A DNA stretch of 64,000 nt from Sphaerodactylus townsendi (lineage: Eukaryota), in the NCBI RefSeq assembly GCF_021028975.2, contig NC_059438.1:21204001-21268000 (forward strand), written 5' to 3'. This document shows, one piece after another, positions 5,466-64,000 of the stretch. Position 1 is the first letter of the stretch, and every line of letters starts with the position of its first letter. The position numbers were made by a program, and so were the translations under genes. Below the pieces are notes generated by a model. It did no database searches. It worked only from the letters and a program-made list of their open reading frames with translations, and had not been told where the DNA came from.

Positions 5466-7412
5466 ACAATCCAGACTATGTTTTTACTAGGTGATTCGGG
5501 TAAATTTGTCAGCTGGTTCTTAGCAAAACTGCAGGGCTCAATATGGATTTGCAAGTCCTATCATGCAGAAATTGAGCCTCCATAATGGGTTGACAGATTA
5601 ATTGATCTATTTTATGAAATCGTGTAAATCAATAAGCAGCAAGGTAGTTTTGGAGGAAGTGGTAAAGGACCAAGGTTTTTTGTGTCTACAATAAGGGAAA
5701 AAGGGACAGAAGATCTGTGTCTTCTACACGATAGAGCAGTTTTGTTTACATGGTGGCCCTTTAAGACATTCACCCCACTGAGCAATGATTGAGAACTCAA
5801 CTAGATGATATGTCTGACCCAAGCCAAGTCAGTAGGGCCCCAACTGGACTCACGTTAGACGTAGTATAAGACAGCTGACAGTCTCATGTGATGTGGGACT
5901 GGATTTGGCTTACAAGCATCGCACGGAAGGAAGAGGGGCTTCAGCTTTCCCTCCTGAGCCTTTTTTCTGAGTGGAAACAACTGTGGAGGGGGATCCTCCT
6001 TGCTCCATTTGTTCTGACTGCAGAACCTGGAGCTCTGGCCAAGACAAACAATCTTCCTGTGGCTTGGAAAACTGTGTGGGAGGAAAAGCCAAAGCCCTTC
6101 CTCCCCCCATGCCTGTGAGCTTCATCCACCCCTGCAGTGCTTGGGAATGTTAAGTTCCTGACGTTTCATGCGTGCAAGTTGAGCCGAGGTTCGCCTGACC
6201 TGATTCGTGCCTTCCTTATCATAAGAACATAAGAACGAGCCTGCTGGATCAGACCAGAGTCCACCTAGTCCAGCACTCTGCTAAATCCTCTAGTTGAGCC
6301 TTCAGACCAATGGCCTGGGCAAAAGAGGCTTTAAAAACCTCCGCTAAGCTTGCTTAACTTAACAAAAGAGTAGGCCTTTCAAAATGATTTTATGGTGGTC
6401 TAGATATGGATCTTTTGGAATTCCTCACTTTTCAGGTCAGGACTGTGGAATAAGCGCTTCAAAGGAAGGCTGTTGTTTTAATAGGATCTCTGGAATTGGC
6501 ATCAGTGGCAACTAAACACCACGAAATCTTTTAATCTGTTTTAAGATTGATACAGAGATGGTTAACACTGCAAAGTAAGTAGCTGTGGAATATAAGCTTT
6601 CAGATGTGAGTGCTGTATAAGGTGTATTTCTTCTACTGGCTCTTGGAGAATTGGTGCTTTTTAATCTTGTGTCTTGTCTCTGTGGACGGCTTTCCCAACC
6701 AGTCTCCCAAAACGCTTTTGGGGCCAATTCACAACACTCTTAGCAGAAGGTTGGTAGATGCTTCCTGTTCTTCTCTCTGGGACTCTTGGATTCAGGAATC
6801 ATGCAAATGGTGTTAACTGCATAGTTCCTTCTCGCCCAATTGTATCCAGACTGAAGAAGGAGGCAATATTTGGGTGGAAGAGAAACATGCAGTTATCTTA
6901 ACCTGCACGATCCCTGTGTCCCGGTGGTCACACAGCACTGGTGGCAGAGGTCATGGTGATGAAGTGCTCCAGCTCCATTGCCAGACAAGTGTGAACTGGG
7001 CCTTAGGCATGTGTAGCCGAGCTTGTAATTGTGGGTGAGCGTAACTGTCAGAGTTCAGTTTGGGAACATATTGACCCATGGGCTACCTCTGATAATTGTG
7101 GCTTTGTCTGGGAGAGATTGGGTAGGGAGATCCGGAATCCTGCCAAGAACACAAATCAAATTTGTGCCATTTTTTAATGTGACTTCTTTCCATTCTCCTC
7201 CAGAAAGGTGGGAATGAAGGGACGGCATGGGCACGAAAAGGGTTTTGTTGGGTCCTTCACTTATTTCCTGAGCTAGTACTATGGGAATTCTTGTACGCTT
7301 CAAACAAATAGCTTTGTCCACTCATTGCTGCTCTTGGCCATCGTGCCTTTATTAATTCTTCCAAATAAATCATTGAACTTTCCTCTCTTACCTGTGTCCC
7401 TTGAATTTTCAG

Positions 7413-7730
7413 CCGTGGCCAAGCGTGTCCAATCTGGCGAAGGATTTCATCGACCGCCTGCTGACAGTGGACCCTGGTGACCGGCTGACGGCCCTCCAAG
7501 CCTTAAAGCACCCCTGGGTGGTCAGCATGGCTGCTTCCTCTTCCATGAAGAACCTGCACCGTTCCATCTCTCAGAACCTCCTCAAGAGGGCATCATCTCG
7601 TTGCCAGAGCACCAAGTCGGCCCAGTCCACCCGCTCCAGCCGGTCTACCAAATCCAACAAGTCTCGGCGTGTGCGGGAGCGGGAGCTGCGGGAGCTGAAC
7701 TTGCGCTACCAACAGCAGTACAACGGCTGA
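7413..7730 (+). CDS. PSKH1: Serine/threonine kinase H1, last coding exon (rest of gene lies upstream of the window)
   Basis: Acceptor ttttcag at 7406-7412, then [72 protein letters not shown]...[13 protein letters not shown], nearly identical to the recalled human PSKH1 C-terminus. Confidence 0.97.
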
Positions 7731-17165: not shown

Positions 17166-17518
17166 CTGGGGAAACAAGCAAATTTCAGGCATCGAAAGGG
17201 CAACACAACAACAGAGATCCCCCTCCCCCCCATGCCTTAATCTGTCCTGTTAACATCTCTCTGTTATCAAAGATATATGTACAGAAGTACCTTCACCTAC
17301 CCTTGGCGAGATTTCCCCCTCTTCCCTCTCCTCCCAAACCCTAATCTGCAGCTGTTGGTACATCTGTCCTAGGTAGATTGCACAGATGCCGATTCTTCCC
17401 TTCTGGAAGCGTTCCAACATTCAACTCCAAACACAGTGCTCAATTCCTGGATTGCATTTATCCTCTTTTCCTGCTAGGCTGTTTCCCCGTTTGACTCCCA
17501 CCCATCTGCCTGACGTAC

Positions 17519-17699
17519 TGTTGGTGCTGGTCCGTCCCCAGCCAGTGGTGACACATCTCAGCCCTTCGGGCAGCGTCTCCGTGGCAGAAGCCAGGCAGAC
17601 GGGAGACACGCGGGAATTCAGCTGAGCAGGAGAAGAAAGCTTCAGCAGGGTGATATCATTGTTGAGGGTGCTGGGATTCCAGGAGGGATGGGTGATGAC
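17519..17699 (-). CDS. CTRL: CTRL exon 5 (VITHPSWNPSTLNNDITLLKLSSPAQLNSRVSPVCL...TTGWGRTSTN)
   Basis: 181 nt, catalytic Asp (NNDITL), donor A|gtacgt. Confidence 0.96.
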
Positions 17700-18991
17700 C
17701 TGGAAAACACAAGTAAAAAATAATCCGGAGGTTAAATAGTTTGTGCTTAAAGGTCTCCTCCTTGGTCTCCCTTTAGAACTTGCAGGGCATGCAAATATTT
17801 GTCAAGTGAAGTATATTCAGTTTCACATAAAGATGTTAGTAGATTGTATATTCCTCCACCACAGAACAAAGCATGCTGGACCTTCTTTGTTATAGAATGC
17901 TCCACCTGGATCCCTACCTAGCCCTGCTCCCCCCACTATCCATTTGAAAGTTAAAATACAATGTTCAGTAATACACAACAAAATAATGGTTTTGACAAAG
18001 GCAATGCATAAAAATGAATGATAATTCTCATATTTGTTTGGGACTATATTCTAATGCAGAAGCATGTGATGCCTCAACTGACCAAACTAACATCTTTATG
18101 TGAAACTAACATCTTTATAGTAGCTGCTAATTGCCTGGAAGTTGATGAGACTATTCATGCCCTGATGGCAGATATACTTAAAGGGGAGAGTTGTGGCTCA
18201 GTGACAGAGCATACATTTGACATACTGAAGGCCAAAAATTCAATCCCTAGCTAGCACCTCCTTTTTAAATAATCAGGTCACAGGAGGCATGAAAGACCTC
18301 CACCCGAGACCCTGAAGAGCGGCCGGCTGCCAGTCTGAATTGACTTTGATGGACCAATGATCTGATTCAGCTTAAGACCACTTTGTGAATTAATAATTGC
18401 CAGGGTTGCCCTATTGAGCCTCATGTCGCTCTCTTCCATGCCTTAGTGAATTTCAGTCTGGACTACTATAATACATTCTTAGTGGGACTGCTCCTGAATA
18501 CAGTTCAGAAATTTCAACTGATGCAGAATACCACAGCCACTCTTTCACCTGGTATTACAAGGTTGGTTAATGCTGGTTTTCTGTCTTTTTTTCAGGACCA
18601 AGTTCAAGGTGATGACTGTGGCTTATAAAAGCCCTAATCATCTATATCAAAAGGTGTCTATTTCTATAGGAGCTTCCGCTGTGCTTTTAAACAGAGAGGC
18701 CTTGCTTTAGGGTCCATCTCACAATGAATCTATGGTCTTCAGCATGGCCTTCTTGAAGGTTGCCCCAAAGCTCTAGAATGCCTTCTCTGTGTGAAGTTGG
18801 TTGACCCAATTTATTCAGCATTGTAAAGGATGGCCAATGCACTTTGGCCTTTTAACACTTAGTAGTTTTCCTGCTTCCTGGTTTTCTTATCTAAGTTATT
18901 TTGACTTTAATGTACCATTATCAAGTTTTGTTTTAAAATTCCAGGCAGTTCCAAAAAGGCAGGAGGGCATGGCAAGTTATAACGGACTCAC

Positions 18992-30070: not shown

Positions 30071-30907
30071 TTGGGAGGGGGGTGCAGTTTGAGAGCTTGG
30101 CCCAGGCACCATTTTCTGTAGATACACCCCTGGCAACAGGGATGGCAGGGAGCACTGGTTCTGAGAGAGTGAGTACAGAACGATTTCTAGAAGCGTTAAC
30201 AATTTGGGGCGAATTGGAACAAAATGTTCTGGTTTTCCCCTAAAAGTGACTGATTGTACTCTAGCACGGAAAACTCAGAACCAAGGAGTTGCCCAACTTC
30301 CAGCATAATCAAAATATTTCCTCTTTTGACATTTCTTCCCCTCAGAAGAGGCGAAAAAAGAGAATGTGGCAATGCTGGAACTGCATTCAGGCGCGAAATA
30401 TCAGATTTATCCCAAAACCATTCAGGATGATGAGCCTGGGGGAAACAGTGGGACTTCACCAGACCCTTCCTTGAGACCCATGCTACAGTTAAACACACAT
30501 AAAGCTGCCTTGTACCGAATGAGTCCACGGGTTCCATCTAGGTCAGTACAGTCTCCTCAGACCGGGCGTAGCTCTCCAATGTCAAAGATTCTTTTCCCAT
30601 AGATTTTATTTCATTTCCACTCCCTTCAACCACAGGGTGGTAGGATTGTTGGTAAGAAAGAAACAGAAACGTACAACAAAATAATAAATACTGAGATTGT
30701 TTAAAAAACATGTACAAAAAAATCTCTGGTGACAGCTCTTCGCCAACCCACATTATTAGAGAATAATAATTTCAGTATAATTGCTAGAACACAAAACACC
30801 AGTGTTAATAAGAGATCTCAATGTCTCAGGTGGCCACCTTTCATACCACTTGGAGATGCTGGGGATTGAATCTGGAATTACCTGCTTCCCAAGCATGTAC
30901 ACTATCA

Positions 30908-31202
30908 CCAGTGTGGTATAGTGGTTAAGAGCAGGTGGATTCTAATCTGGAGAACTGGGTTTGATTCCCAACTCCTCCACCTGAGTGGCAGAGGCTTATC
31001 TGGTGAACCAGATGTGTTTCTGCACTCCTACATTCCTGCTGGGTGACCTTGGGCTGGTCACAGTTCTCTCAGAACTCTCAACCCCACCTACCTCACAAGG
31101 TGTCTGCTGTGCGGAGAGGAAGGGAAAGGAGCTTGTAAGCCATCTTGAGTCTCCTCACAGGAGAGAAAGGTGGGATATAAATCCAAACTCTTCTTCTTCT
31201 TC
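30908..31202 (+). mobile_element. Squam3-like SINE, full length
   Basis: tRNA-like head, CORE, tail ataaatccaaact(ctt)n. Confidence 0.85.
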
Positions 31203-31545
31203 ACTGAGCCATGGGCCCTCCCCAAATGAGGCTGTGTTTGTATGTAGGGGGACTGTCACTCTGCCATTCTTTTTGGTATCTCCAGGAGTCTCTCAGGTAT
31301 ATCCATCTGTTTTGGCGTCCAAGAAAGTAGATTCCTTTGAAATATAGTCTTGGAAGAGAGTGTTATGGATATGGTGGACTGACAAAACTCCCAAATAAGT
31401 AGGTTTTAGATCAAATCAAGTCTGAACTGTCTCTAGAAGCTAACATGACTCATCTGAGTCTGTTGTACTTTGGTCACATAATGAGAAGGCAAGAGTCATG
31501 AGAGAAGATTAATGCTAGGTAAGGTTGAAGGCAGCAGGAAAAGAG

Positions 31546-32347
31546 CAGGGGCATAATGCCCATTGGGCAAGGTGGGCAGCTGCCCAGGGCATCACCTTGT
31601 GGGGGGCATCAAAATCCAGGGTTCGTTTTTGGGTATTTTTAGTGGTTTTCCATTTTTGGCCTGCAGGGGCGCAATTTTTAGGCTAGAGGCACCAAATTTG
31701 CAGTGTATCATCAGGAGACTGTCCTTATGCTCCCCGCCCCCAAGTTTGGTGAGGTTTGGTTCAGGGAGTCCAAAGTTATGGACTCCCAAGGGGGTGCCCC
31801 ATCCCCCATTGTTTCCAATGGGAGCTATTTCCAGGGGGAGCTAATTTCCAGGGGGAGCTAATAGGAGATGGGGCTACAGTTTTGAGGGTCCATAACTTTG
31901 CCCCCCGTGAACCAAACTGCACCAAACCTGGGGGGTATCATTAGAGCAGTCTCCTGATGAGACCCTGAAAGTTTTGAGACTGTGCCTTCAGAAATGTGCC
32001 CCCCAGCCTGCAACCCCCATTGACAGCAATGCAGAAAACCCAATGCAGAACAAAGATTCTTGGGCAAATTTCTGGTATGTTCCTGCAGGGGGCGCATTTT
32101 TGGATGTATCTGCACCAAAATTTCAGGGTATCATCTGGAGACTGTCCTGATGGGATCCCCCAAGTTTGGTGCAGTTTGGTTTAGGGGGTCCAAAGTTATG
32201 GACCCTCAAAAGGGTAGCCCCCATATCCTTAGCAAGAAATGGGAGATGGGGCAAAAAAATTTTGGTTGTGGTGGAGTGGCTGCCCATGGTGGGCGGCATC
32301 CAACTCAGGTTTTGCCCAGGGCTACAGTTTGCCTCGTTATGCCCCTG
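31546..32347. mobile_element. Non-autonomous hAT element (802 bp) with internal subrepeats, inserted in an RTE fragment
   Basis: TIR caggggcataa / ttatgcccctg, perfect TSD gaaaagag; recurring internal units such as gtccaaagttatggac and gtatcatcaggagactgtcct. Confidence 0.85.
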
Positions 32348-32368
32348 GAAAAGAGGAAGGTCCACCAT

Positions 32369-32508
32369 GGCCCCTTCCGCACATGCAGAATAATGCACTT
32401 TCAATGCACTTTGCAGCTGGATTTTACTGTGCGGAATATCAAAATCCACTTGCAAACAGTTGTGAAAGTGGATTGCAAATGCATTATTCTGCATGTGCAG
32501 AAGGGGCC
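32369..32508. mobile_element. PIF/Harbinger-type palindromic MITE (same family as 11190)
   Basis: TIR ggccccttccgcacatgcagaataatgca, 3-bp TSD cat. Confidence 0.82.
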
Positions 32509-33246
32509 CATGAGATGGATTGATTCTGAAAGGGAAGCCTCAGCCCTCAGTTTGCAAAACCCGAACAAGGCTGTTAAAGAGAGGACGTTTTGGAGGACAT
32601 TGACCCATCGGGTAACCATGTATCTGAAGCAACTTGGCAGCACTTAACACACAACACAGAGCACAACACAGAGCACATCATTACACATATTTTTGAAATT
32701 CTTTGCATTTCTTCTGCCAATCAGAAGGCAGATATTTTTAGTTTACTTTGTTTACTTCATTTATAGCTCATCTTTCTCACTGAAACTCAAAGCAGGTAGC
32801 AGAACTGGAAAACACGTTTGATTTATCCAGTACATATATATGATGTGTTTGTGTTCATAATGCACATATGTACACATATGGTGATCCAGACACAGGCAGA
32901 AAAGGTGTACTCCAGTATATGCCTAATTTCTACTAACTTTTTTCTATGATGATTGTTAGTTGGAAAGGAAGAACCTGTCTGGGAAATCATGTATTCCTTA
33001 CTGTGAGTTTCGAGCCTGCAGATCCGGTCCATTAGCAGAGCTATTTTCCTCTACTGGAAAAAAGACAAAAAGCAGAAAGGGATGCATAACAGAGAATGTC
33101 ATTTGCACAGAAGCATAAAGGTAGGGTCATTTGATTCAGGGATAAGTGCACAATAGCTCCCATTCACTTCAGAGTTATTGTGTGTAAGGGTAGTGAGACC
33201 CCGTTGATACATTCAACAGAAGCTAAGTGTTGTCATCCTGACCTTA

Positions 33247-33446
33247 GTGCCCAAGCTAGTCCGATCTTGTCAGATCTCAGAAACTAAACAGGGCGCACTC
33301 TGGTTTGTACTTGGATGGGAAACCATCACGGAAGTGAACAGTTGCTACACAGAGGCCGGCATTGGCAAACCACTTCTGTTCGTCTCTTGCTGTGAAAACC
33401 TACGAGGTCACCATACGCTGGCTGTGACTTGATGGCCCTTTATACA
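33247..33446 (+). mobile_element. 5S rRNA-derived SINE
   Basis: ccgatcttgtcagatctcagaaactaaacaggg...gtacttggatgggaaacc. Confidence 0.72.
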
Positions 33447-33778
33447 GTTGCTGTCTCAGTGAGGTTGTGGCACCAAAGCGTGATCCCAACAGGATGTTCT
33501 GCAAGGACGTTGGTTGAAGCAAGTGGTGCTTCCCCACTTGGGACATAAAAATGTGAAGGTCAGCAGAAAGCCAGAAAGAGGTATCTGAGTAGGAAATCTT
33601 AGTTTGCATAAGAAAACGTGAAAAGAGGAATTTAAGGTTCTTACAAAACGTTTCTGAAGCAGAGCCAATCTATGCCAGTATTAGCCCCTGTCATCATTTC
33701 CTCTTGGTGCTAGAGTTCCGATGTGTGTTGATTATTAGTTGTTTGCTCACAAGAGCTGAGCTCCACACAAGAAGCAGC

Positions 33779-34792
33779 ATGGCCCTCTACAATACCTCAG
33801 AGCTGGAAAGGAACAGCACAGTGACAGAGGAGGAGCGTGAGTCCATCTCTGTGTTCCCAAGTATGTTCCTCCTTGTTTGCTTCCTGATTGGAGTCCCTGG
33901 GAACGGCTTTGTGGTCTGGACTATTCTGACCAAGTTCTTCAAGCGTTCCTTGACCCTTCTTCTCATCCTGAACTTGGCTGTCACAGACTTAATTGTCATG
34001 AGCACTGTACCATTCTGGATGTACTCTTTCCTCTACGGCTGGGTCTTTGGAGATGTGTTTTGCAGAGTCCTCAAGTTCCTTGTCTACTTGACCATCTACG
34101 CCAGCATCTTCTTAATCACGCTGATGAGCCTCCATCGTTTTGCCGTCGTGATCTTCCCATTTGCTTCCCAAAAGTTGTGGCGGCCGCGGGCAGTGCACTG
34201 TGCGTTGCTGATGCTCTGGCTGGCTGCCTGTCTTTTTGGAAGTCCAATTCTGATTGTGTCCTCGAAACCCAAGAAGGAAGGAATCTGCACAGATGAAATG
34301 TACTACACGGATCAACAGCGAATAACGGTGAACTTTGTGGAGACTCTGTTTGGCTTTGTGATCCCGTTCACCGTGATGGCTGTCTGCTACTCCTGTGTCT
34401 TGAAAAGGCTTCGGATGCTGAAGAGCCATAAGAAAATGAAAACCGGGAAGCTAATTGCAGCTGTGGTCCTCTCTTTCTTCGTGTGTTGGCTCCCTTACCA
34501 CGTCTTCAACATCCTCATAAGTGCAGCACTGATGCTGAAAACGGAACGCCCGGAGACGGCAAAAACCTTGCTAGGAGTGACCAAAGTGGCAACGAACATC
34601 CACGGGGCTGTAGCCTTTGTCAGCAGCTGTCTGAACCCGATCCTGTACGCCTTTGCCGCGCGGAGCTTTCGTGGAGGGCTCCGGGAGACCAATTTTGCCA
34701 AGTTGTTCGCGAAAATTCACGAAGACTCCGAAGAAAAATCTGCCTTGGAGAAGTCTACAGGGGACAGTGGTCTTTCAACGGAGAAGTTGTAG
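33779..34792 (+). CDS. Leukotriene B4 receptor (BLT1/BLT2)-like class A GPCR, intronless, 337 aa
   Basis: ATG in a strong context (gcagcATGG) at 33779; the ORF-track start at 33704 is a TTG. Seven TM segments with GVPGNGFVVW, LNLAVTD, FCR, YASIFLITLMSLHRF, ETLFGFVIPF, CWLPYHVFN and SSCLNPILYAF, matching BLT-family signatures; N-glycosylation sequons NTS and NST. Orthology to LTB4R is not established, so no symbol is given. Confidence 0.92.
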   Translation: MALYNTSELERNSTVTEEERESISVFPSMFLLVCFLIGVPGNGFVVWTILTKFFKRSLTLLLILNLAVTDLIVMSTVPFWMYSFLYGWVFGDVFCRVLKFLVYLTIYASIFLITLMSLHRFAVVIFPFASQKLWRPRAVHCALLMLWLAACLFGSPILIVSSKPKKEGICTDEMYYTDQQRITVNFVETLFGFVIPFTVMAVCYSCVLKRLRMLKSHKKMKTGKLIAAVVLSFFVCWLPYHVFNILISAALMLKTERPETAKTLLGVTKVATNIHGAVAFVSSCLNPILYAFAARSFRGGLRETNFAKLFAKIHEDSEEKSALEKSTGDSGLSTEKL

Positions 34793-36569
34793 GAATACAT
34801 ATTTTTCTTCTACCTGGAGAGCAAGCCATGTGTACATATGCACACTCCTGGAAATAACTTATGAAGTTGCTGGAATAGGCATGAGAACTAGGGAATGTTT
34901 CTGGCAGGAAGCAATGAGAGAAGTATATTTCTGAAAACCAAGCAGCTCCATCTTGCCTGTTAATCACACCTTTCATTGAATAGCAGTTTTCCACTGTGAA
35001 GACCTCCCTTCTGTCTACTGTTGTAACCACACAATGACGACTTTTCTGTGTTTCTTCTGTCGCAGCTGTAAAAGCGGAGGTATTCATGGTTGCAACGGAG
35101 TATCCCCATGGTAGCAGGAATGTGTAGACGTCTCAACTTCAGGGGCAAGGGGGCATGTCACAGGGGAACACCTAGAGAAGGTGTGGGCTCAAGATCAAAA
35201 AAGATCAGTCTGAAGTAAACAATGTAAAATAGATCTCCATTATGTAAATTAAGAATAAGTGTACCAAAGCTAACTGAAGAGTTCATTACAACAAATGTAG
35301 TCTATATGCATGTTGCTAGAATTGCTCAACAGTGAATGTATGTCTACTGCTTTGTGTTCTCTTGATGAATTTTTAGGTGTAGTTTTAATAGGCTGGGTTC
35401 ATGTCGGAGGGAAAGAAATTTATTGTTTATCTCAGACTCAGGACTAGATGCAAGGAAGCTCTAGCTAAAAAGAGGAAAGGACCTAAGTGTGATATACCAG
35501 AACAATGCAGACATGCATGGCCTAGCTATACTCTGTCTCAGATAAAGATATTGGTATGGTCAGTTTGTTAGGCCTGACAAGTTGAGGTTCAGCAGTTGAG
35601 AAATCTGTATGCTTGCATGACAAAATTGCATTGTCCTGAACAAACGACTATGGGTATTATCATTAATTATTTACACGCTGCCTTTATTATTTTGTGCATT
35701 ATTGAACATGGTACTTCGATACAACAGCATTTATAGTTCATTGAACAACTATCATCAAACTTTCAAATGGATGGGGGCAGGGAAGCAGGGCTAAGCAGTT
35801 GGGTCAGGTGGAGCATTCTACAACAAAGAAGGTCCAGCATGCTTTGTTTTGTGGGGGAGGAATATACAATCCACTAACATCTTTACATGAACCAGATTGT
35901 GCCGTCAAAGGATCTTTTTGTACTGAGTACCAGCATCTTTTGTTCACGTCCCATGGGAGAAACTGGTGAAAATCAGCACAACCTTATGCATGAGTACCGG
36001 CAACTTGTTTTTAAAACACTGGAGTCATCAGAATGTTTCGTTTATTAACATTTCCTCCTCTTAATATGAATATGTCAGAGGTGGGAGCTGATGGATATGT
36101 CCACATGCCCATTCAGGACAGCTGGCCGTGGGAAAGGGCTCTACTGCACTAGACTCAGTGCAAACAACCAAGAATATATGTGTGTTTTAACTGACTTGAA
36201 TTACTTCACTGGTACATTTTAATTAGTGTGGTATTTTTAATTGTTATTGTCTGCTTGGTTTTATTTTATTGTTGGGAGCCTCTCTGAGCATCCTGCGAAG
36301 AGAGAGCTGCTTACCCTTGTGAGAGAGACTCAAAGGACGATGCAGTGAATGGTTGGCGGAGCAGCTGTCTATTTCCTGGTGGGGCCTGGGAAGAAGAAGT
36401 GGTGTAGCGTTCTTGTTAAAATGGCTGTTGGAGTTGTTGTGAGGGCGTGCAGGCCCAACGTGTATGCATCAGATTTAAATAAACACAATGAGCTCCTTTG
36501 CAAGTGACTGAAATCAGTTCTTTGAGGACTGTCTAGAGGATCTTCCTAAAGCCGCACTGTGGCTCTCAG

Positions 36570-38024: not shown

Positions 38025-38211
38025 TCAGGCACACTTGGGCTTGCCAAGGCAGAAGGGCAATTCCGGAGCAGGAACCAGAATGTTCCCAAAGACAGGCTGG
38101 TAGTTCTCCGGCAGGACTTGCAGATTCTGCACCATTATCTCAAGCACGTTGTTGCGAATTTCTTTAGAGACGTCACCCCGCACTTCTAGGAGCATGGAAA
38201 TGTGGTCGTCA
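38025..38211 (-). CDS. EXOC3L1: EXOC3L1 last coding exon (DDHISMLLEVRGDVSKE...FCLGKPKCA*)
   Basis: 187 nt ending in TGA. Confidence 0.93.
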
Positions 38212-38525
38212 CTGTGGGGGGAGAATAAGACAGATGGCAAATTACCTCTCCTTGGCCCTCTTGCTGACAATCACTCCCCAAGTGTCTTCAGAAGCCCCAA
38301 AAGTCCACTACTTCACCTTGTTTCCTCAGCTGCCCCTCAGTCACACAGATGTTCAGAATCACAACAGGCAATTTCCACTTCCAGTTTGGGAAACCAAGTT
38401 CCAACTTGGCTGCCTCTAGGTGTGGGCATGAATAGGGTTACCAGCTCTGGGTTGGGAAATACCTGGAGATTTGGGGGTGGGATTTGGGGAGAGGGGGGAG
38501 CTCAGCGGATTATAATGCCATAGAG

Positions 38526-38662
38526 CATAGGTGTCAAACTCGCGGCCCTCCAGATGTTATGGACTACAGTTCCCATCATCCCCATGCCAACATCATGCTG
38601 GCATGGGGATGATGGGAACTGTAGTCCATAATATCTGGAGGGCCGCGAGTTTGACACCTGTG
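38526..38662. mobile_element. Palindromic hAT-type MITE (TIR cayaggtgtcaaactc)
   Basis: TSD ccatagag/ctgtagag; nested in a TAGGGTTGCC-type element. Confidence 0.85.
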
Positions 38663-39405
38663 CTGTAGAGTCTACCCTCCAAAGCGGCCATTTTTTCCTG
38701 GGGAACTCATCTTGATTGCTCAAGGATCAGTTGTAATATTGGGAGATTTCCAGGTGCCATCTGGAGGTGGGCAACCCTTTGCTGGCAATAAAAAGCAGCA
38801 TGGAAACTGCATCCACCTGTCTTGTTCCCTTACTGCATACTCTGCAGCTGTCCCACCCCTGCCCCTACATGCTGTGCCTTGGTACTCCCCCATTAGATGT
38901 AGGGACCCAGAAAAAAACCTGGAAGAAATGGAAGAAAAAACCCTAATATTTTTCATGAGGTCTTTAAAATATTTTTTCCAATGAAAATATTGGGAAGTCA
39001 AGGGAATGCTGGAAAAAACCCTCCTATGAAATAGTTCCCCTTTTCAAATGAGTGAAATGTTTTTAAAGAGCAGGTGGGCATGCTGTAAACACATACCGCT
39101 CTTAACTACAAGATGTATTTTTGCACTAGAAGGAAAAGTGGAGAAGTGGGGAATCAAACCCCATCTTCATGAAGATAGCATGCAGAACTTTGATTGTTTC
39201 TGTGGCCCTTTTGACCTGACTCTTCTCTTGTGGTTGACGTTTGCACGTCTTCCTCAAACCAGTATGACACATATAGCCGCAGACTGGGTAAAGTAGCTTA
39301 TTGCCTATATTGCTAAAGGTGGGGAGATCAGATGGGGCAGAAACTGCACGGAAGCCTCAGCAGAAAGCTCTGGAAATTTCACTGAGAACTGAGTTCTCTC
39401 TAACC

Positions 39406-39847
39406 CAGGGGTAGGGAACCTGCGGCTCGAGAGCCGCATGCGGCTCTTCTGCCCTTGCACTACGGCTTCACAAGCTGAGCCGCCGGCCCCATCCTTGCCC
39501 ACCCTGCAGGCAGAAAGGCAGGCGCACCAACTGCCTGCGGTTGGCTGGGTCGCGCCGTGGGCTTCCCCTCTCGCCCGCCCCATTTGAGCGGGGCGGGTGC
39601 TTTCCCGGCGGCCGGCAAGGCCGAGCCACTGACCCCATCCTTGCCCGCCCTGCAGGCAGCAGGGCAGACACATCCTTGCGCTTCTCAGAATGAGCGGAGT
39701 AAAAGGTAAAAAAAAAACCCCCTATATATATATATAGTGTTATCTTTATTTTAAATGTCAAAAATTATTTGCGGCTCCAAGTGTTTTCTTTTCCCGTGGA
39801 AAACGGGTCCAAATGGCTCTTTGAGTGTTAAAGGTTCCCTACCCCTG
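39406..39847. mobile_element. Non-autonomous hAT (Charlie-type) element, 442 bp
   Basis: TIR caggggtagggaacct / aggttccctacccctg, perfect TSD ctctaacc, CpG-rich interior (probably young). Confidence 0.9.
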
Positions 39848-40157
39848 CTCTAACCAGTAGCCACAGAAAGGAGAAGACAGCATTTGACTGTGCAGAGCTG
39901 TGCAGATCTTAGTACTATCTCCTTGTGTAAACAAATATGCATTTTATTTACCAGAAATCTGAAGAAAATTGGTGTACAGAGGCAAAAAAGAGCGCCAGAC
40001 AAGTTGGGCCCACATGAGGCACAAAATCATCTGGATGTTCTCCTTTATGGCACGGGCTTCCTGTTTAGTGTTGCCAATTCCTGGCTGGTAAATTCCTGGA
40101 GATTTGGGGGATAGAACTAGGGGAGGGAGTTGGGAGGGACTCCAGCAGGCTATAGTG

Positions 40158-41748: not shown

Positions 41749-42010
41749 AGCAGGAGATCAGCACCATCTGGGATATGGGACTGAAATGGTGTGGGGCGGG
41801 GGGGGGGGGGGCACACACACAAAAGCAGTCCACTCAAACTCCGGAGAATCTTCAAAGGGAAGATTTTGAGGATGAAGTTTCCAAGTTGTGGCTCCCTCTT
41901 GCTGATTCTGCGCAAGCCTGGCCAGCAGAGTCAACCCACCTTTCAAAAGAAACTCCTGGTCTCTGCTAACCCTTTCCCTGGAGAAAAAACAAGCTATTCC
42001 CTTCTCTCAC

Positions 42011-42166
42011 CAGGGTACAGAAGAGCTGCTTCAGCTGAGAGGCGTCCTGCAGCATCCGCCTGCCCATCTGGTCTCTCTCCTCTGTGTTCCGGCACACAAT
42101 TTTCTTCTGCAGCAGCGCCTTCACGTACTGGCTCATAACCACGTGCTCAGAATCCACAAGGAGATC
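42011..42166 (-). CDS. EXOC3L1: EXOC3L1 coding exon 11 (DLLVDSEHVVMSQYVKALLQKKIVCR...QLFCTL)
   Basis: 156 nt, canonical splice sites. Confidence 0.93.
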
Positions 42167-42291
42167 CTAAACATCAAGGGGGGAAAGACTTGGTTCATTC
42201 ATTCTGGCTACTTCTGGTGGAAGCTGGTCTAAGGGGAGGGCAGAAACGTGGGGTATAAATGCTTCAAAAGAAATAAAAATAAAGAGTCCAG

Positions 42292-42573
42292 GGCCCTTTC
42301 CCCACTCACCTTTGCCCGAGGGTTGCTGCGGGCAATTCCCGGCGCGCGCAATTCCTGCCGTGCGCCCTGGCTTCCCCACGACCCCGTGCTCTGCGCGGGG
42401 TCGTCAAAAGGCGCCATTTGAAAAGGCGCCAGAAATTCCGCGCGTCGAGGGGGCGCGAGAGAAGCAGCGTCGGGGCGGCTGCGTTCTCGCCGCCCCTGAA
42501 GTGGGGAGGGCAGCTGAACCCCGCGCTACTTGAGGAGAGTAGCGCGGGGCTTAAGGAAAGTGGGGAAAGGGCC
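42292..42573. mobile_element. PIF/Harbinger-type MITE, CpG-rich
   Basis: TIR ggccctttccccact / agtggggaaagggcc, 3-bp TSD cag. Confidence 0.8.
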
Positions 42574-42856
42574 CAGGTTTAAATCTCTGGCAACTCCAAC
42601 ATAGAAAGATGTTGGGGCTTGGGAAATTTTTTTCTCCTGAAATCTTGGAGAAATGCTGCTAGTTAGTGTACAGCGCTTAATGCACCGATCTGATGCTGTA
42701 CAAGGGTTAGGGTTCATATGTTCAACACATGCACGGTGGATCTGGACATCCAGCTGGTATTAGGGACACCTGCAGAGGACGGCTGTCTTCAAAGGCCAGA
42801 TGTCAGCCAGCTAGCAGCAAAGGATTCTCCCCACCACCATTACCCCCAGACCTTAC

Positions 42857-42979
42857 CGTGCTGAAAGGTTTGCGAGCCCTGCAGAAGACTTTCACGTGGG
42901 TATCGATCACCTCACATATGTTACGCATCATTTGGGGGTCAGATAGCCAGTGGCGGGAAGGCAGCTGTACAAACAGTGG
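42857..42979 (-). CDS. EXOC3L1: EXOC3L1 coding exon 10 (PLFVQLPSRHWLSDPQ...KPFST)
   Basis: 123 nt, canonical splice sites. Confidence 0.93.
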
Positions 42980-43544
42980 CTGGAGCAGAAAGGGATATCT
43001 CCGTACGTTTAAAGAAAAATGTATATCTCCTCTTCCCTTCCTTTGAAAAGGAAGCTCACGGCAGCTTACAAAGCAACCATAAAAATACAGGCAACCCTCA
43101 TATACAACAGCATAAATAATATATGCAATGTGTATCATAAAATCGGGAAGAAATACACAGGAACAGATTTTGAGCCTGAAGAGACCTGTTCAAATTATAT
43201 ATTTTAATGTGCAGCACTGCAAGTTCAAAGTCTAATGGTCTTCTCCTGGGAATTCCAGTGGTCCAAGCTGCTGTAGCAAAACCAAACAGAAGTCCTGTGG
43301 CACCTTATAGACGAACAGCATTTATTCCAGCAGGAGCTTTCATGAGCCAGAATTCACTACTACTGATTCGGACTGCATCCAGACTGACCTCTGTCTCACA
43401 GAAGCTCAGTAAATGTTAAGTGTTTACGGTGCCATTGGACTTCTGTTTTGATGTCTTGGGTCTGAAGGCACAGAGGGAAACTGAAATGGCCTAGTTCGGC
43501 TTATGTGGAGACCACATCTTCTTCCTTCTGTTAGAAATAGGTAC

Positions 43545-43686
43545 CTGCAGATCTGCTAGCAGCTCATCCAGTAACAGCCGGCATGCCTTCTTCTGGGCCT
43601 TCTCCAGGGCGGCCTTCAGTGAGGACGGAATCTTGTGGGACTCTGAGAAGGATGCCCCTTCCGTACAGAGGACTGAGACTGAAGTG
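43545..43686 (-). CDS. EXOC3L1: EXOC3L1 coding exon 9 (TSVSVLCTEG...LLLDELLADLQ)
   Basis: 142 nt, follows a 117-nt intron. Confidence 0.9.
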
Positions 43687-43803
43687 CTGCCCATTGAGAG
43701 GAAAGGAAGAGTTGGGAAGTGGGCTTGTTGCAGAGTGCCAAGGGTCTGGGGATGGGATGGCAGCCATGACAGGAGAAGTGCCAATCACTGGCTGGGTGAG
43801 TAC

Positions 43804-43914
43804 CTGAGAGCCAGACAGTTGTTGATGGTTGACAGCATATATGGGGCATAGCACTTGGATGCAGCAGGCTCTTGTTGATGTTCTCTGTTGAATTCCGACA
43901 GGGCCTCAGTAAGG
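43804..43914 (-). CDS. EXOC3L1: EXOC3L1 coding exon 8 (LTEALSEFNREHQQEPAASKCYAPYMLSTINNCLAL)
   Basis: 111 nt, donor AG|gtactc. Confidence 0.9.
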
Positions 43915-44883
43915 CTGCAGAGAAGAACGACAGTTACAAGGGCATCTTGTTCACCTAGTTAGATCTCTGCCTTCTCATGAGTGTAAAGATTAGCACATGA
44001 GCTTGGAAAACTCATGAAGATTTGGGAGGTGGTGCCTGTGGAGACATCACCTGGGGAAGAGAAGGAGCTCAACATGGATGTTATGTAACTCTAGGACTTC
44101 CATTTCTCCCAGACTCTATGATATACCTCTATACTTGCCATTTTCTTCAGGGGATATCTTTGGTCTGAAGATCAGTTGCTCACTAAAGACTTGTGATTCA
44201 AGGGAATCCTTGAAGAATCCTTCCCCAAAGTAATAGCCAATTAGAGTAGGAATGGGGTTACCAAGTCCAAGTTGGAAAAGACCTTGGTGTGATATAATGC
44301 CATAGAGTCTACCCTCCAAAGCAGTTGTTTGCTTCAGGGCAACTAATCTCTTTTGTGACTCCAGGAGATCTCCAGGCCCTACCTGGAGATTGGCAACCCT
44401 AGCGATCCAAACAGCCTTTACTGGCTGCACTTACAGAGTCCTTTCCATGCCCTCTAGAGCAGCAGTCTCTGACCTTTTGAGCCTGCAGGCACAATTGGAA
44501 ATCCTGGTAGGTGTAGCAACAAAATGGCTGCCACAAAATGGCTGCCACAGGAGGTACAGCCAACCACAGAATGATTGCTATAGCTTTACTTCAGTAGCAC
44601 AGTACAGATTCTTGTGATGTGGTAGCAGCTGTTGCCATCGCAACATTTTAAAAATTGCACAGCCAATCAAATCTCCAGGAGTCAGTCAGAAGCCTTGCCA
44701 TGCAAAAACCCTACCTGACCCCACCCATTTCTTGAAAACACTTGGCAGACACCAAGGAGAGCTTGATGGCATCTGCAGGCACCATGTTGGGGATACCTGC
44801 TCAAGAGGGTCCTTTCCCAGCATGACAACCACTCTCCTCTGTTTCTGGACCCCCACTGAAGAGGCAGTAGAGGGACAACTGAC

Positions 44884-44984
44884 CTGCCCAGAAAGGCTTC
44901 CAATTCTGCCAGAGCCATGCTGCGCACCTTCTGCAGGAGATTATCTGAGATGAGGGAGGCCACTCGGATGTTCTCATCTAGCAT
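44884..44984 (-). CDS. EXOC3L1: EXOC3L1 coding exon 7 (MLDENIRVASLISDNLLQKVRSMALAELEAFLG)
   Basis: 101 nt, canonical splice sites. Confidence 0.94.
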
Positions 44985-45107
44985 CTGACATGCAAGAGGA
45001 AGAAAGGGAAAGAGATGAATGGGAATCAAAACCCCTGACCTTCCTTCTGCAGCCGGGTCCCCCTCTCCTCCCCTACATGGGTCTTCTTCTGGCCCACTTC
45101 TTCTCAC

Positions 45108-45233
45108 CTTCATAACAATGATGGGCAGAGTGGTCTGGAAGCAGCCTTGGTAGTCTGACTCAGGCTCTGTGTCGCTGAACCACTCTTTGAACTCTATCTC
45201 CAGGGTCTTCTGCATCCATTCAGCAATGCTAGC
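45108..45233 (-). CDS. EXOC3L1: EXOC3L1 coding exon 6 (ASIAEWMQKTLEIEFKEW...LPIIVMK)
   Basis: 126 nt, canonical splice sites. Confidence 0.93.
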
Positions 45234-45533
45234 CTAGAGAACCAAACAAAAGACCTTCTCAGCCAAGTCTACAAACTTGTAGTGGGTGCCATGAGGCCAG
45301 GCGCAAAATGCTGGGAGGTGCCAAGTCCTGGGCAACGGAGGTAGCTGCTTCTCAATGGCTGCTGTTTAAATACACAGGGGTGATTTCACCAGAGTTCTTC
45401 TCATGCGCTTCTTTTTCAGTGTGGCAGAGTTAGGGCACTGGGAGAGAGGAAACACCTGGAGTTCTACCTCGCTTGGCCAAGAAGCTGTGCTGAGGAAACA
45501 GGATGTTTTAATCTGCTGTTGACCCTTCCTTAC

Positions 45534-45651
45534 CTGCACTTTGACAACATATGTCTCTTCCAGGTAATCTATCAAGTCCGCAGCAAGCAGGGGCCTCAAG
45601 GTAGAAACATCCACTTCGGGGAGAAGGTTTGGGTGTGCCATCATTTCCGCA
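45534..45651 (-). CDS. EXOC3L1: EXOC3L1 coding exon 5 (AEMMAHPNLLPEVDVS...VVKVQ)
   Basis: 118 nt, canonical splice sites. Confidence 0.93.
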
Positions 45652-46904
45652 CTGTGGAACAACAAGGCATGTTAGGATTAGACATTTTTCAGTGCCAACC
45701 GCTCCTTCCTCCCTTACAGCATGCGTAGGCTTGGCTGTGCAGTGCATCCCCATTGCAGAGTTATATAATGATGATCACTTTTAAACTGTGACGGATTTGC
45801 CTATAGGCTTGGCAGGCTGAAGCCTAGGGCCTCAAAATTTAGAAGTCTCTGACTAAAGTGTATAATATTTTTGTGGCGCTTCCCCTTCCCTCCCCGGGCC
45901 TTCAGGTGTGGGCTCCTTCCCTCCCTCCCTTTCCTGGGGGCTGACTTCCCCAGAGGTGTTCTCTTCCTGTTGGCCCGGAGGGCCAAGAAACAGTTTTGCC
46001 CACAGGGCGCCTCGTGACGTAGGCTGCCCCGCCCTGGTACCCAAACCTCACCACCCAGGTCCCCGGTGGCTTCCCTCCCTTGGACTGGCTGTAGTTCCTT
46101 CACTAGCAGCCAGTTGTAGTTAGGCCTGCAGTCTCGCCCTGGCCAGTTGCTTCACTGAGCCTTTGACTGCTTCTCCACGGCAAGCCAGCTCCCTGGCTTG
46201 CCCGCTCGTCCTCCTCCCTTCCTGAGATTCCTCTCTCATTAGACAGTCCCTCTTCCCTCCCTGAGATTCCTCTCTCACTAAACCGTCCCTCTTCCCTCCC
46301 TTCAACAGCCCGCTGCAGTGGCAGCTCTTGAGGTCTTGGGCTCCCTTCCTTAAATAATCTTTCTTGCTCCAAGGTCCTCCCCCTCCCCAGCTGCCGCCTC
46401 TCTGAGCTGAGCCAAGCCGGCTCAGCTGTGTTTCGGGCGCGGCCAGGTCTCTGCTCTTTCCCCACTTCCACATTCCTGGCTGCTGGCTGGATGCAAGGTC
46501 TCCCCCATGGCGGCGCGTCTCTTTCCCGATCGCTGGTAAGTCTGGGTGCGGGGAGGGAGGGGGCGGGCGTCCCAAATGCCGGGACTTCGCCCGCACCCGG
46601 ACAATTTTTGACTTGTGCACTGCCCCTCCCCCGGTGATTTCTGTTCAATCTGCTGCTGCACATGTGTTGTGCATATTAGCCACATGTGTGATGTGATCTG
46701 CCTTGAGTCCCTGTGAGATGGGTGGACTTCACACCAACCTTCCTAGACTCCAACTCCAAATCTTGAGGAATTTCTCAAACTGGAGTTCAAAACACTGTCT
46801 ATCTTCCCCATCTACATTTCAAAACCTCATCTACACTTAAAAATTAGTTGTCCCTGTTGCCTTCCCTGTCTATGACCACAGCATCCTAGAGTATTGGTAC
46901 TGAC

Positions 46905-47580
46905 CTAGGGTAGACATGGAGAGCCCAGTGAAGGACAGCAAAGATCTCCTGCTTGTCCACGTCGTGAGTGAGGATTTGATGGAAGTGGTGCGTGAGGCTC
47001 TGGTGATACATGGCAGCAAAGGTCGAGAGTATGTTGTAGTGAGGCGGGCAGCATTGGACCATTAGATCTTTCACAATGCACAGTTCAGCCAGGATGGCAC
47101 TCTGCAAGGAAGCCAAGTACTTGGAGAGGGACCATCCCTGGGCCTCTCTGGGTACAGTCTGGAAGTGGGCGGCCACTATGGTGTCCTGGATGACCTGAAA
47201 GAACTTCTGCCGCCAGCCCTTTGGCCGTCCTGGTGGGAGGAAACCAGGGACCTGTGATCTTCGCAGCAGCACAGCATCGATGCCCTCTTCTCGCTCGATA
47301 ATGCGCACAGCAGAAACAAAGAGGGAAGGGTCCTCCAACATCAGCTTCAACCCATGGGCCACAATATGCCATAGCTGCTGGGCCAGGGCCTTATTCAGTT
47401 CCTGGAGGCCCCCAAAGTAGGATTCTATGCTGGCCAGGTAGGAAGGGCTGAGCAGGTTGTGGTCATGCAGTTGGGACAGGATGCCACCTTGCAAGCTCTC
47501 CAGGTTCATGAGCCCCATGTGAGCTTCCAGAAGATGCTGACGTTGCAAGAGGTTGAAACTCTCAGAAAGGAGTTTGTGAA
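46905..47580 (-). CDS. EXOC3L1: EXOC3L1 coding exon 4 (HKLLSESFNLLQRQHLLEAH...LHWALHVYP)
   Basis: 676 nt, Sec6-domain sequence, AG|gtcagt donor. Confidence 0.94.
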
Positions 47581-48869
47581 CTGTGCAAGGAAGAGGAGAA
47601 GGAACAAGGAGAAGATGTTCAAGGTCTCAAGATTGTGAACTGGACGCTGAAGGAAATTTTGAGGGGGACCAGCTACCTCAAGTGTCTTGGAAGAAGGGGT
47701 AGGATTTCCTACCTGTAGATGAGGCCTGAGGATCCCCCAGAACTACAGCTGACCTCCAGATGACAGATATGAATTCCCCTGGAGAAAATGGCTGCTTTGG
47801 AAGATTCTATGGGATTACACTCTGCTAAGGCTCCACCCCCCAAACCTAGTCCTCCCCAGGCTCCACCCACAATCTTCAGGAAAGTCCCAAACCAGAACAG
47901 GCAACTCTAGGAAGAGGTGAGAGAACAAAAATGTCAACGAGAGTGACAGAAATGATGCAGACCTAGAAAATAAGTATCATATCACCAGTTTTGCTGCCTA
48001 GATAGAAGATTGTTTATTTAATTCATTTCTGCTCTACCTTTTTTCCCAAATAGGGACCTAAAGTACTTTTTACAATGTTCTCTTTCCCTCCATTATATCC
48101 TCACATCTACCATATGAAGTACATTGAAGCTGAGAATGTGTGACTAGTCCATGATCACCAAAATATGGAACAGCAAAGATTCAAACTTTGGGCCTCCCAC
48201 ATTATAGTCCAACTGCTACCCCATATAATGAATCAGTGAGTTGAATCAAGCAGTCATTTTCTCCTTGGAAGGTTACTTTAATTGCAGTCACTCCATGTTG
48301 GATATGCACTGGCTTTAAATGGGAAAAAAACCCCAAACGCTAACATTGTTAACATATGAATGATAAGTTTATAAGGACTTCCATCATTTTTCACATCTTT
48401 GTAGAACGTTGAATCAATCCATCAAATAACTCAATGGCCATTGATTCACGTGTGGTCACCTTAGTTTTGATCGTACATTCCCTTCGAATTTGATTCTCGG
48501 TTACACATTCGTTTTCCCCTTGTTGGCAGTCACCCCGTCCATAGATCAGAGAATCCCCACGGTTTCAGAATTCTCTTACGGAGTGACTTTTTGTCTCCCT
48601 TTGGAGGGAAAGTGAAGGAGATGACCATGCATGAAGCTTTCCTTGATTTTTCTTGCTCTTTTTCGCCTTTGTCTGCCCATACCAAAGTAGCTCCTCTCAC
48701 GCTTTTTGATGGGGGCCAGCAGGCCACCCTTTCAGGACAACCAGAGGAGTTTCTTCTTTATTTTCATGGAAAAGGTCTATCGCTGGAGCAGTGAATCCAG
48801 TGAAATAGATAAGGCTGGGTTTGTTAACAAAGCTTTTGCCAGCCTTCCTTTTTATAATTATAATTATAA

Positions 48870-61257: not shown

Positions 61258-61695
61258 GTGAGTACTGATAGATCAGCAGCGACAGAAGGAGACCATGAAA
61301 GCGGGCTTTTATTCTCAGGAGCATTCTGGTGGCAATTGCTCACAAGGTTCCATCGCCATGAGTAGGTCTTTGGGCACTACAGACAGCGCTTGGCTACAAA
61401 AAGAGCTGTGCGTTTAAGCCAGAGGGAAGATCCCCTACACTTTATACCTGAGTGTGAGGGCCAAAATATTAAGCAACTTCTCATTTCGGGGGTGTCTCAA
61501 CTAATAGAAGTAAAAGAGGAAACAGTGGAGGGTGAAATTGATAGAGCCTTCCATATAAATTCTGCAATCAGGTTTCATATTATGTGTGGTGGAAATGGCA
61601 GTGCCCCTGATACCTTCAAAGACCCCTTTGGTGAATGGAGAGGCTGTCTATTTACAGCTCTTGTTCCCCCTCCATTTCCTTCCTTCCCCCTCCAG

Positions 61696-61857
61696 AGGTG
61701 TGGGACCGGGCTGCAACACCCGTGAGATCGCCCATAAGCTGATCGAACTGAAAGCTGAGATCGAGGACCTGGAGCAGCGGGAGCGAGAACTGGAGCAGCA
61801 GAAAATGTGGGTCCAGCAGAGCATCAGGAATGTTTCCGACGATGTCCAGAACAACAG
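61696..61857 (+). CDS. E2F4: E2F4 exon 3 ([26 protein letters not shown]...VQNN)
   Basis: 162 nt, dimerisation coiled coil; ends at the U12 donor ATATCCTTT. Confidence 0.96.
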
Positions 61858-62711
61858 ATATCCTTTCCCTGCACCGTGTTCTGCTTTCATCCCCATTTTT
61901 GCCTCAGACGCTCCTGCTGCAGTGGGCAGGAAGAAAATGTTGGTTCCTGTCCTCTAAAGCAACACTTGAATGACAAGCTAGTTCAGCAAATGTCAAAAAT
62001 TCAAGCATTATCTCTCTGAATCAGGTCTCCATCAGTAGCTAGCACAAGGTCTGAGGGTGGAGATAGCCGCTTCTTGTGGGTAGGTTTCTGCAGCTGGTAA
62101 TCAGATGAGCTGCAACATGTGGTAGAATTTTTTCCTTATAACCCTGTGAGGTAAGATAGACCTGAGAATGTGTGACTAACCCAAGCAAGCTTCTCCGGGA
62201 GCGTGGGGATTCAAATCTGGATTTCCTATATTATAATCCAGCATTCTAACCACAGCAACTTAATAAAGCCTTGGATTTTTTTTCTTAGCAAGCTTGGAGC
62301 AATTCCCAAGGCTTAAAAAAATGACTGAAGTTGGGGGCCTCTTTGATCCCCAACTGGATAAAGTATGCTTTTTAATGTAAGCAAGAGTTAATTAACTTTT
62401 TCATGTCCTTTCTCCATAGAAACTCTCATCCTTCACTATGTTTGTTTCCTTATTGCTAATTTTTAAAAAATCCATATCAAAAGAATTGTCAGTTTTAAAA
62501 CTTCACTCTCTGTTATGTCTTTGTTGACACAGACATACTGAAAGAGGAGAGAGAGGGGTGGGGCTGGATATTACTAGCATTCTGCATATTCTACTGAGAA
62601 AGCTGATTCAAATAATAGGTTTCGTGGAGCTTCCATAGCTGTACCTTTTGTAGATCTTGGAATGATCTCTTTACTACTGGATCCAACAGACTTTTCCTTA
62701 ACTCCAGGAAC
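61858..62711 (+). other. U12-type (minor spliceosome) AT-AC intron, E2F4 intron 3
   Basis: 5' splice site ATATCCTTT, branch TTCCTTAAC at 62694-62702, 3' splice site AC at 62710-62711; splicing restores the frame. Confidence 0.95.
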
Positions 62712-62755
62712 GTTAGCCTATGTGACCGATGAGGACCTCTGCAAATGCTTTGCAG
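62712..62755 (+). CDS. E2F4: E2F4 exon 4 (LAYVTDEDLCKCFA)
   Basis: 44 nt after an AC acceptor; donor G|gtgag. Confidence 0.94.
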
Positions 62756-63573: not shown

Positions 63574-63635
63574 GTGACACACTGCTAGCCATTCGAGCCC
63601 CATCAGGCACTCAGCTCGAGGTTCCTGTTCCTGAG
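63574..63635 (+). CDS. E2F4: E2F4 exon 5 ([20 protein letters not shown])
   Basis: 62 nt, marked-box region, canonical splice sites. Confidence 0.95.
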
Positions 63636-64000
63636 GTGGGTAGAATGGAGTGGGTTCTTGATAGAAAAAAGCCAATTGCTGGGAGTTGCTTACAGCTGGG
63701 AGGCTTGGTGCGCTTTTGCAATTCTGATGCAGTTACTTTAAAACATTAGTGATGCTGATAATAATTTATAGAAAATTATTTATAGCCTGGATTTCTCTCC
63801 AAGGCAAGTCACAACAGTCTCACAAGAAGAACATTTTAGAGGGTAGCCATCATGGTCTGCATTAGAACTTCTGGATTTGAGTCAAGTAGCATCTTAGAGA
63901 CCAATGGGGTTTTCAACAGAAGCTTTTGAGTCAAAACCTTTCATCAGATATAATATACAAGATACGAAGGTCTCTTCATCAGGAAGATGAGAAAATTTAT

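Follow-up and report, generated by a model that had tools for sequence, protein, structure and literature searches.

The window analysed here, a 64,000-nucleotide stretch of Sphaerodactylus townsendi DNA, carries a reading frame that resembles the leukotriene B4 receptors and has His-Arg-Phe at the DRY position and an altered ligand pocket, which raises the question of what receptor this gecko gene encodes and what it binds. We found that it is an intact member of the GPR190 group, neither BLT1 nor BLT2, and belongs to a subtype apart from GPR190A. Residue numbering was anchored on the human BLT1 sequence, which agreed with published residue numbers; the counts below cover 23 named squamate and 12 amphibian members, with six unnamed sequences and one partial sequence excluded. 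The features of the gene are:

33779–34792, + strand: GPR190-group (LTB4R-like) class A GPCR, 337 aa, single-exon CDS, from translation, Pfam and tree.
34004–34018, + strand: TM2 Thr76-x-Pro78-x-Trp80; Trp2.60 in 35/35 named tetrapod members, Phe/Tyr in BLT1.
34073–34075, + strand: Lys99 (3.29; human BLT1 His94), gecko-only within the subtype.
34133–34141, + strand: His119-Arg120-Phe121 at the DRY position (3.49–3.51); His-Arg in 23/23 squamates and 6/12 amphibians.
34259–34261, + strand: Ser161 (4.64; human BLT1 Arg156); Ser/Ala/Thr in 23/23 squamates, Arg in 12/12 amphibians.
34265–34267, + strand: Lys163, from the codon check; patchy, 10/23 squamates.
34286–34297, + strand: ECL2 Cys170-Thr-Asp172-Glu173; C-x-D-[DE] in 23/23 squamates.
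34592–34606, + strand: TM7 Thr272 (7.35, BLT1 Arg267), Asn273 (7.36, BLT1 Asn268) and Gly276 (7.39, BLT1 Ile271).

The frame is open throughout, without a stop, and its start ATG lies in good context (A at −3, G at +4). A codon check reproduced exactly the intact frame, the His-Arg-Phe codons, Lys99 and Ser161 described in an earlier, sequence-only reading of the locus, and alignment with BLT1 bore out its statement that Tyr3.37, Glu5.42 and the TM6 YHxxN motif are retained (Y102 as Y107, E185 as E188, YHxxN as Y240–N244). Contigs from two DNA runs on two samples, one run possibly being the assembly's source, span 33265–35713 with zero differences, and the reading frame is therefore not an assembly error. 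This interval is single-copy, and very high-copy repeats flank the gene at window positions 30670–32537 and 38142–40000. A longer UniRef model (P0121, with 18 extra N-terminal residues) was rejected: it matches the window only from 33740, and orthologues begin at the ATG of the frame.

Pfam identified a 7tm_1 domain (E = 3e-51), which places the protein in class A, and the GN, LAxxD, CWxP and NPxxY motifs and the disulfide cysteines are all intact. The best relative of solved structure is BLT1 (E = 5e-50). The AlphaFold model and the Foldseek search contributed the fold only: the model has seven TM helices and helix 8 with a mean pLDDT of 68, values are about 51–67 around ECL2, the orientation of which is not readable from the model, and Foldseek ranked BLT1 first, followed by lipid- and peptide-binding receptors nearly tied.

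A six-frame search of the genome identified four BLT-family genes, namely the window's receptor (C14, 21.24 Mb), a gene at C14 9.05 Mb (L002; C14:9051397–9052407, L002:1441–2451, − strand) and a BLT1/BLT2 tandem pair on C15. The L002 protein (P0122) is 39% identical to the window's receptor and has an ERV motif, Val3.29 and Gln4.64. The C15 genes have Arg4.64 and DRC, with His3.29 in BLT1 and Tyr3.29 in BLT2. Because this separate pair is present, the window's receptor is an additional gene. No second GPR190 copy or remnant beyond L002's gene was found by tblastn of the window and 29 further loci.

We reconstructed trees of 78 rows (quick), 137 rows (FastTree) and 43 hand-picked rows (careful maximum likelihood), with no mammalian BLT2 row, and all three agreed on the receptor's position. 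In the careful tree, BLT1 and BLT2 from shark to human formed one clade (100/99) that excluded the gecko receptor. It fell in the sister branch of BLT1/BLT2, with support of 99 in the quick and FastTree trees and 90/94 in the careful tree, the latter value, for the branch of all non-BLT1/2 rows, falling below the starred threshold. The sister branch contains sharks and rays, lungfish, ray-finned fish, amphibians, birds, a turtle, marsupials and squamates. It also contains P0275 (UniRef name Si:dkey-148a17.6), with which the gecko receptor shares the branch (99 in FastTree, 90/94 in the careful tree).

This branch is not new, having been named in 2019: Rinne et al. (PMC6504862) placed a proposed orphan receptor, GPR190, beside the LTB4 receptors and divided it into subtypes A and B, plus a single platypus sequence. 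In that paper, fish GPR190A is labelled si:dkey-148a17.5/6, and GPR190B comprises expanded ray-finned fish genes (si:ch73-113g13); the group has no human orthologue, and the survey's reptile and amphibian sample was anole, softshell turtle and Xenopus only. P0275 carries the GPR190A label and groups with gecko L002, a turtle, birds and frogs, so L002 is the gecko's GPR190A. Like GPR190 as described there, the window's receptor lies in an orphan branch by the LTB4 receptors, and it shares Trp2.60 and Gly7.39 with the branch that holds P0275.

The tetrapod subtype of the gecko receptor unites squamates, salamanders and caecilians (95/93 in the careful tree), with lungfish as its sister (87/88). 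The union of this subtype with each of three groups was rejected by AU tests: BLT1 at p = 1.4e-38, tetrapod GPR190A at p = 0.0009 and a long-branched marsupial GPR190 row at p = 0.002. These p-values are somewhat generous because the groups were named after earlier trees had been seen. The proposal of a separate BLT paralogue is thus upheld, the receptor nesting in neither the BLT1 nor the BLT2 clade; with respect to BLT2 the evidence is its position outside the 100/99 clade, the AU tests having covered BLT1, GPR190A and the marsupial row. It is set apart from GPR190A by the AU test, by the gecko's separate GPR190A gene and by its residues, GPR190A having mostly E-R-x and Gln4.64 whereas the window's receptor has HRF and Ser161. 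Zebrafish Blt1 was considered as its orthologue and rejected, having His3.29 and Arg4.64 and grouping with BLT1. The subtype joined a fast-evolving ray-finned clade (His or Gln at 3.49, mostly Arg4.64) at only 55/12, and the ch73-113g13 (GPR190B) label was on 0 of 18 looked-up clusters of that clade; judged from this join, the subtype may be the lobe-finned counterpart of GPR190B.

To assess the distribution of the subtype, we used searches with a word filter, run on predicted proteins grouped into 90% clusters. Among the best 120 of 372 matches, the closest were all gecko proteins. Full-length orthologues occur in geckos, skinks, lacertids, a worm lizard, an anguid and snakes, and seven unnamed close matches sit nearest snakes, lizards or a salamander. 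There was no subtype member from iguanians, turtles, crocodilians, birds, frogs or mammals among the best 120 of 372 and the best 120 of 609 matches; the same database does contain BLT1 from anole, turtles, alligator, tuatara, frogs and mammals. Full-length tetrapod and lungfish members scored 479–562 bits and the others at most 449 (best 120 of 609), a gap that makes a hidden annotated member unlikely. As the groups of the anole, softshell turtle and Xenopus show no member among the matches listed, the subtype was probably not sampled in the 2019 survey. GPR190 proteins occur in seven marsupial species, which limits the mammalian absence to the gecko receptor's subtype; among the matches listed, the subtype alone, not GPR190, appears absent from mammals. 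The suggestion of an eicosanoid-signalling branch lost in mammals consequently fails for GPR190 and holds at most for the subtype. The marsupial proteins (P0079, P0083, P0084, P0086, P0087, P0091, P0092) have a very long branch, a shortened ECL2 and an odd amino-acid composition.

The neighbours of the gene in the window, from a domain scan of 449 of its 505 candidate frames, are:

7377–7727: kinase exon.
17424–17801, − strand: chymotrypsin-like (trypsin-family) protease exon, the upstream neighbour.
41969–47626, − strand: Sec6-domain exons, the downstream neighbour.
61559–63746, + strand: E2F4 exons, the E2F exon matching E2F4 best in the PDB.

We take the kinase, protease and Sec6-domain genes to be PSKH1, CTRL and EXOC3L1, respectively. 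Presumably these three share human 16q22.1 with E2F4, NFATC3, ESRP2 and PLA2G15, and we assume that this region pairs with 14q11-12. Gecko GPR190A sits between an ESRP gene and PLA2G15 with an NFATC-type exon 107 kb away, and an exon with best match NFATC4 lies 108 kb from gecko BLT1 on C15; the NFAT exons were found with PF16179, PF00554 gave Rel-type genes only, and PF13520 gave SLC7-type matches on both C14 and C15. Okuno et al. 2015 (PMC4349892) name nfatc4, in a figure legend, among the neighbours of the blt genes, a setting found in the gecko for the tandem pair on C15 and not for the window's receptor on C14. The GPR190 group is probably the whole-genome-duplication counterpart of the LTB4R locus, followed by a local duplication that gave the two gecko GPR190 genes.

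For 12 same-species or same-genus pairs, identity to the gecko protein was 59–89% for orthologues of the window's receptor versus 68–85% for BLT1 (82–89% versus 80–85% among geckos, 59–67% versus 68–72% for other squamates), which indicates comparable constraint. With 19% of one RNA run from a related species read, depth was 0.5–1.8 over the four bins with the frame and its 3′ flank and 0 in four repeat-poor bins of the stretch; this signal is weak, as the library lacks strand bias and DNA carried over from a diverged species would likewise map best on coding sequence. The low RNA depth, the unusual DRY motif and the missing iguanian, turtle, crocodilian and bird orthologues among the best 120 of 372 and of 609 matches are what a decaying, non-functional copy might show, yet such a copy is hardly credible beside full-length orthologues across squamates, conservation near that of BLT1 and two copies in several species. 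Two subtype copies occur in several squamates (P0005/P0006, P0010/P0012, P0014/P0025, P0015/P0016, P0021/P0029), those of Lerista with adjacent locus tags. In skinks, one copy has Arg3.29 and Lys7.36 and the other Met3.29 and Tyr7.36, residue differences that suggest ligand divergence.

Human BLT2 has QRC at the DRY position, and the His-Arg-Phe of the gecko receptor had been read as a sign of altered basal activity. The amphibian members without His-Arg have Gln (five) or Leu (one of 12) at 3.49, and His-Arg is also found in the sturgeon, paddlefish and bichir relatives. As in the gecko receptor, His-Arg occupies this position (HRL, HRM or HRF) in 16/16 fish proteins named Blt2a or Blt2b, and zebrafish Blt2a/b give dose-dependent responses to 12-HHT (PMC4349892). 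BLT1 D114 is part of a phosphatidylinositol site, and D114A lowers activity in a reporter assay (PMC8894450). HRF is therefore no evidence for raised basal signalling.

The cryo-EM study of BLT1 by Wang et al. 2022 (PMC8894450) reports that R156, R267 and H94 reach the C5-hydroxyl of LTB4 via water and places the LTB4 carboxylate at N268. In the same work, R156A, R267A and H94A nearly abolish the LTB4 response, I271A lowers it and N268A has no effect. The gecko receptor differs at all four of the positions R156, R267, H94 and I271 (S161, T272, K99 and G276), and N268 is retained as N273, a retention that means little given the N268A result. Three pocket changes, R267 to T272, I271 to G276 and F74 to W80, extend those in the sequence-only reading. 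Human BLT1 (PDB 7VKT) shares with the gecko receptor its fold and Y3.37, E5.42, G5.46, W6.48, YHxxN, N7.36 and F7.43; the two are 34% identical over the 7TM core and differ by H3.29K, R4.64S, R7.35T, I7.39G, F2.60W, M3.36I and D3.49H. The gecko's true BLT1, in a separate clade and on a separate chromosome, is 52% identical to human BLT1.

R4.64 and R7.35 are invariant in 18/18 squamate BLT1 proteins and both absent from 23/23 squamate subtype members; R4.64 and, in most cases, R7.35 are also present in the BLT2 rows checked, unlike in the gecko receptor. The squamate-wide pocket change thus comprises the loss of both arginines, Gly7.39 and the acidic pair behind the ECL2 cysteine. From these residues, the ligand of the gecko receptor is likely not LTB4, in line with the different ligand proposed for it earlier. 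A third, low-affinity receptor for LTB4 or 12-HHT, overlapping BLT1 and BLT2, would explain why BLT1 is the best sequence and fold match, and it could appeal to the carboxylate contact Asn7.36, kept in 19/23 squamates, and to position 3.29, which varies even among BLT1 orthologues (His 10, Tyr 5, Asn 3 of 18 in squamates, His thus not being fixed); against the loss of both arginines and the silent N268A mutation in BLT1 (PMC8894450), we regard it as highly improbable. At 7.36, squamate BLT1 has Pro in 17/18 proteins where human BLT1 has Asn, and the BLT1 of this gecko has Arg.

According to the sequence-only reading, the basic residue that binds the ligand carboxylate may have moved from Arg156 in TM4 to Lys99 in TM3, or to Lys163, so that an eicosanoid carboxylate would bind in a new pose, with basal activity possibly altered by HRF. 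Lys3.29 together with Ser4.64 in 6/6 gecko sequences counted and in three further geckos agrees with this, as does a parallel basic gain, Arg3.29 and Lys7.36, in two skink paralogues. Across the 23 squamates, however, 3.29 is Met in seven, Lys in six (all geckos), Leu in three, Ile in three, Val in two and Arg in two (the skink paralogues), which leaves 15/23 with a hydrophobic 3.29 and no basic 4.64, and Lys163 is as patchy as noted above. Since the amphibians all have Arg4.64, it was lost in the squamate stem uncompensated, and Lys99, confined to geckos, is a later gecko addition. The role given to Arg156 comes from an older view quoted by Okuno et al. 2015 (PMC4349892), in which R156 binds the carboxylate, whereas the BLT1 structure shows both R156 and H94 at the C5-hydroxyl (PMC8894450). 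With His-Arg in 16/16 fish Blt2 proteins and the lowered reporter activity of D114A (PMC8894450) also against it, this model of a relocated counter-ion with altered basal activity is very unlikely.

The reading that we prefer, at a probability of about 0.55, is that the gene encodes an intact GPR190 orphan, likely a Gi-type chemoattractant receptor that is gated by a lipid-tailed ligand different from LTB4. Its tree position, intact class A motifs and residue changes are observed; the steps that follow are a proposal from residue comparisons. The deep hydrophobic tunnel of BLT1 would be largely retained (Y3.37, G5.46, W6.48, Y6.51 and F7.43, with E5.42, H6.52 and N6.55), so an acyl tail would still fit. 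The polar network that reads the C5-hydroxyl of LTB4 (H3.29, R4.64, R7.35) is missing. The squamate pocket mouth would have turned acidic through Asp172-Glu173 in ECL2, so that a head group that is neutral or cationic would fit better than a free carboxylate. A crude count of rim charge gives +1 for geckos, −0.8 for other squamates and +1.9 for BLT1, the regained positive charge in geckos partly cancelling the acidic shift there. Lys99, as a later gecko change, would more likely pair with Asp172/Glu173 than replace Arg156; the Lys99–Asp172 pairing and the orientation of the acidic pair are candidate features. Gi coupling and a leukocyte role would be carried over by analogy with BLT1/2 and the chemoattractant receptor family.

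The same features may suit a different kind of ligand. T-x-P-x-W with Trp2.60 is typical of chemokine, apelin and angiotensin receptors, and chemokine receptors have Glu at 7.39. Trp2.60 and the acidic ECL2, constant in the named tetrapod members and the squamates, respectively, would also be compatible with a peptide, and a cationic peptide or small protein, instead of a lipid, as the ligand of this GPR190 subtype would accord with the near tie of lipid and peptide receptors after BLT1 in Foldseek. We consider this unlikely, because 7.39 is Gly instead of Glu, the N-terminus is short, the BLT pocket residues Y3.37, E5.42, H6.52 and N6.55 are retained and the nearest characterised relatives are lipid binders.

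In a wider and less probable proposal, GPR190 is a second, whole-genome-duplication arm of the leukotriene receptors in jawed vertebrates, absent from placentals, and the ancestor of squamates saw the subtype exchange an anionic oxylipin, recognised by Arg4.64 together with an ECL2 Arg, for a neutral or cationic mediator recognised by the acidic ECL2 pair. C-x-x-R after the ECL2 cysteine is present in 2/2 lungfish proteins, most GPR190A and many shark proteins, and 6/12 amphibian members have an arginine at that site. If true, the squamate switch would amount to a lizard- and snake-specific chemoattractant axis with its own mediator. A salamander paralogue (P0030, P0033, P0035, P0037) with QRF, Glu7.35, Asp/Thr7.39 and an acidic ECL2 (C-x-D-W) represents a separate move towards an acidic pocket.

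The gene is a genuine orphan receptor and a modest finding. The orphan group, named in 2019, and the annotation of orthologues as 'leukotriene B4 receptor 1-like' in many squamates were already known; the separate subtype, its tie to the LTB4R paralogous region and the squamate pocket shift were absent from the published literature searched. In that search, with subscription literature largely outside it, we found no published study of the subtype and no ligand, G-protein or cell-type data for any GPR190. The results correct the family map, with four BLT-family receptors in one gecko, and provide a natural series for GPR190 deorphanisation, from amphibians with Arg4.64 through most squamates, with an acidic mouth and no basic 3.29 or 4.64, to geckos with added Lys3.29. 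They have no direct bearing on human biology, there being no placental member among the matches listed.

Automatic names in the GPR190 branch are unreliable. In fish, sharks, birds, reptiles and marsupials, many entries under the names 'leukotriene B4 receptor 1' or '1-like' belong to GPR190, which can mislead comparative immunology. Many ray and teleost proteins with the NCBI name 'leukotriene B4 receptor 1' (P0042–P0045, P0060, P0062, P0065, P0260, P0264, P0266 and others) are without His3.29 and fall in the GPR190 branch where placed, and other proteins of the branch are named C3a receptor-like, FPR1 or CXCR4. Elsewhere in the gecko genome, C6:120.22–120.60 Mb holds a cluster of more than 10 chemoattractant-receptor (FPR/CMKLR-like) genes, with similar copies on the small unplaced contigs C663 and C670.
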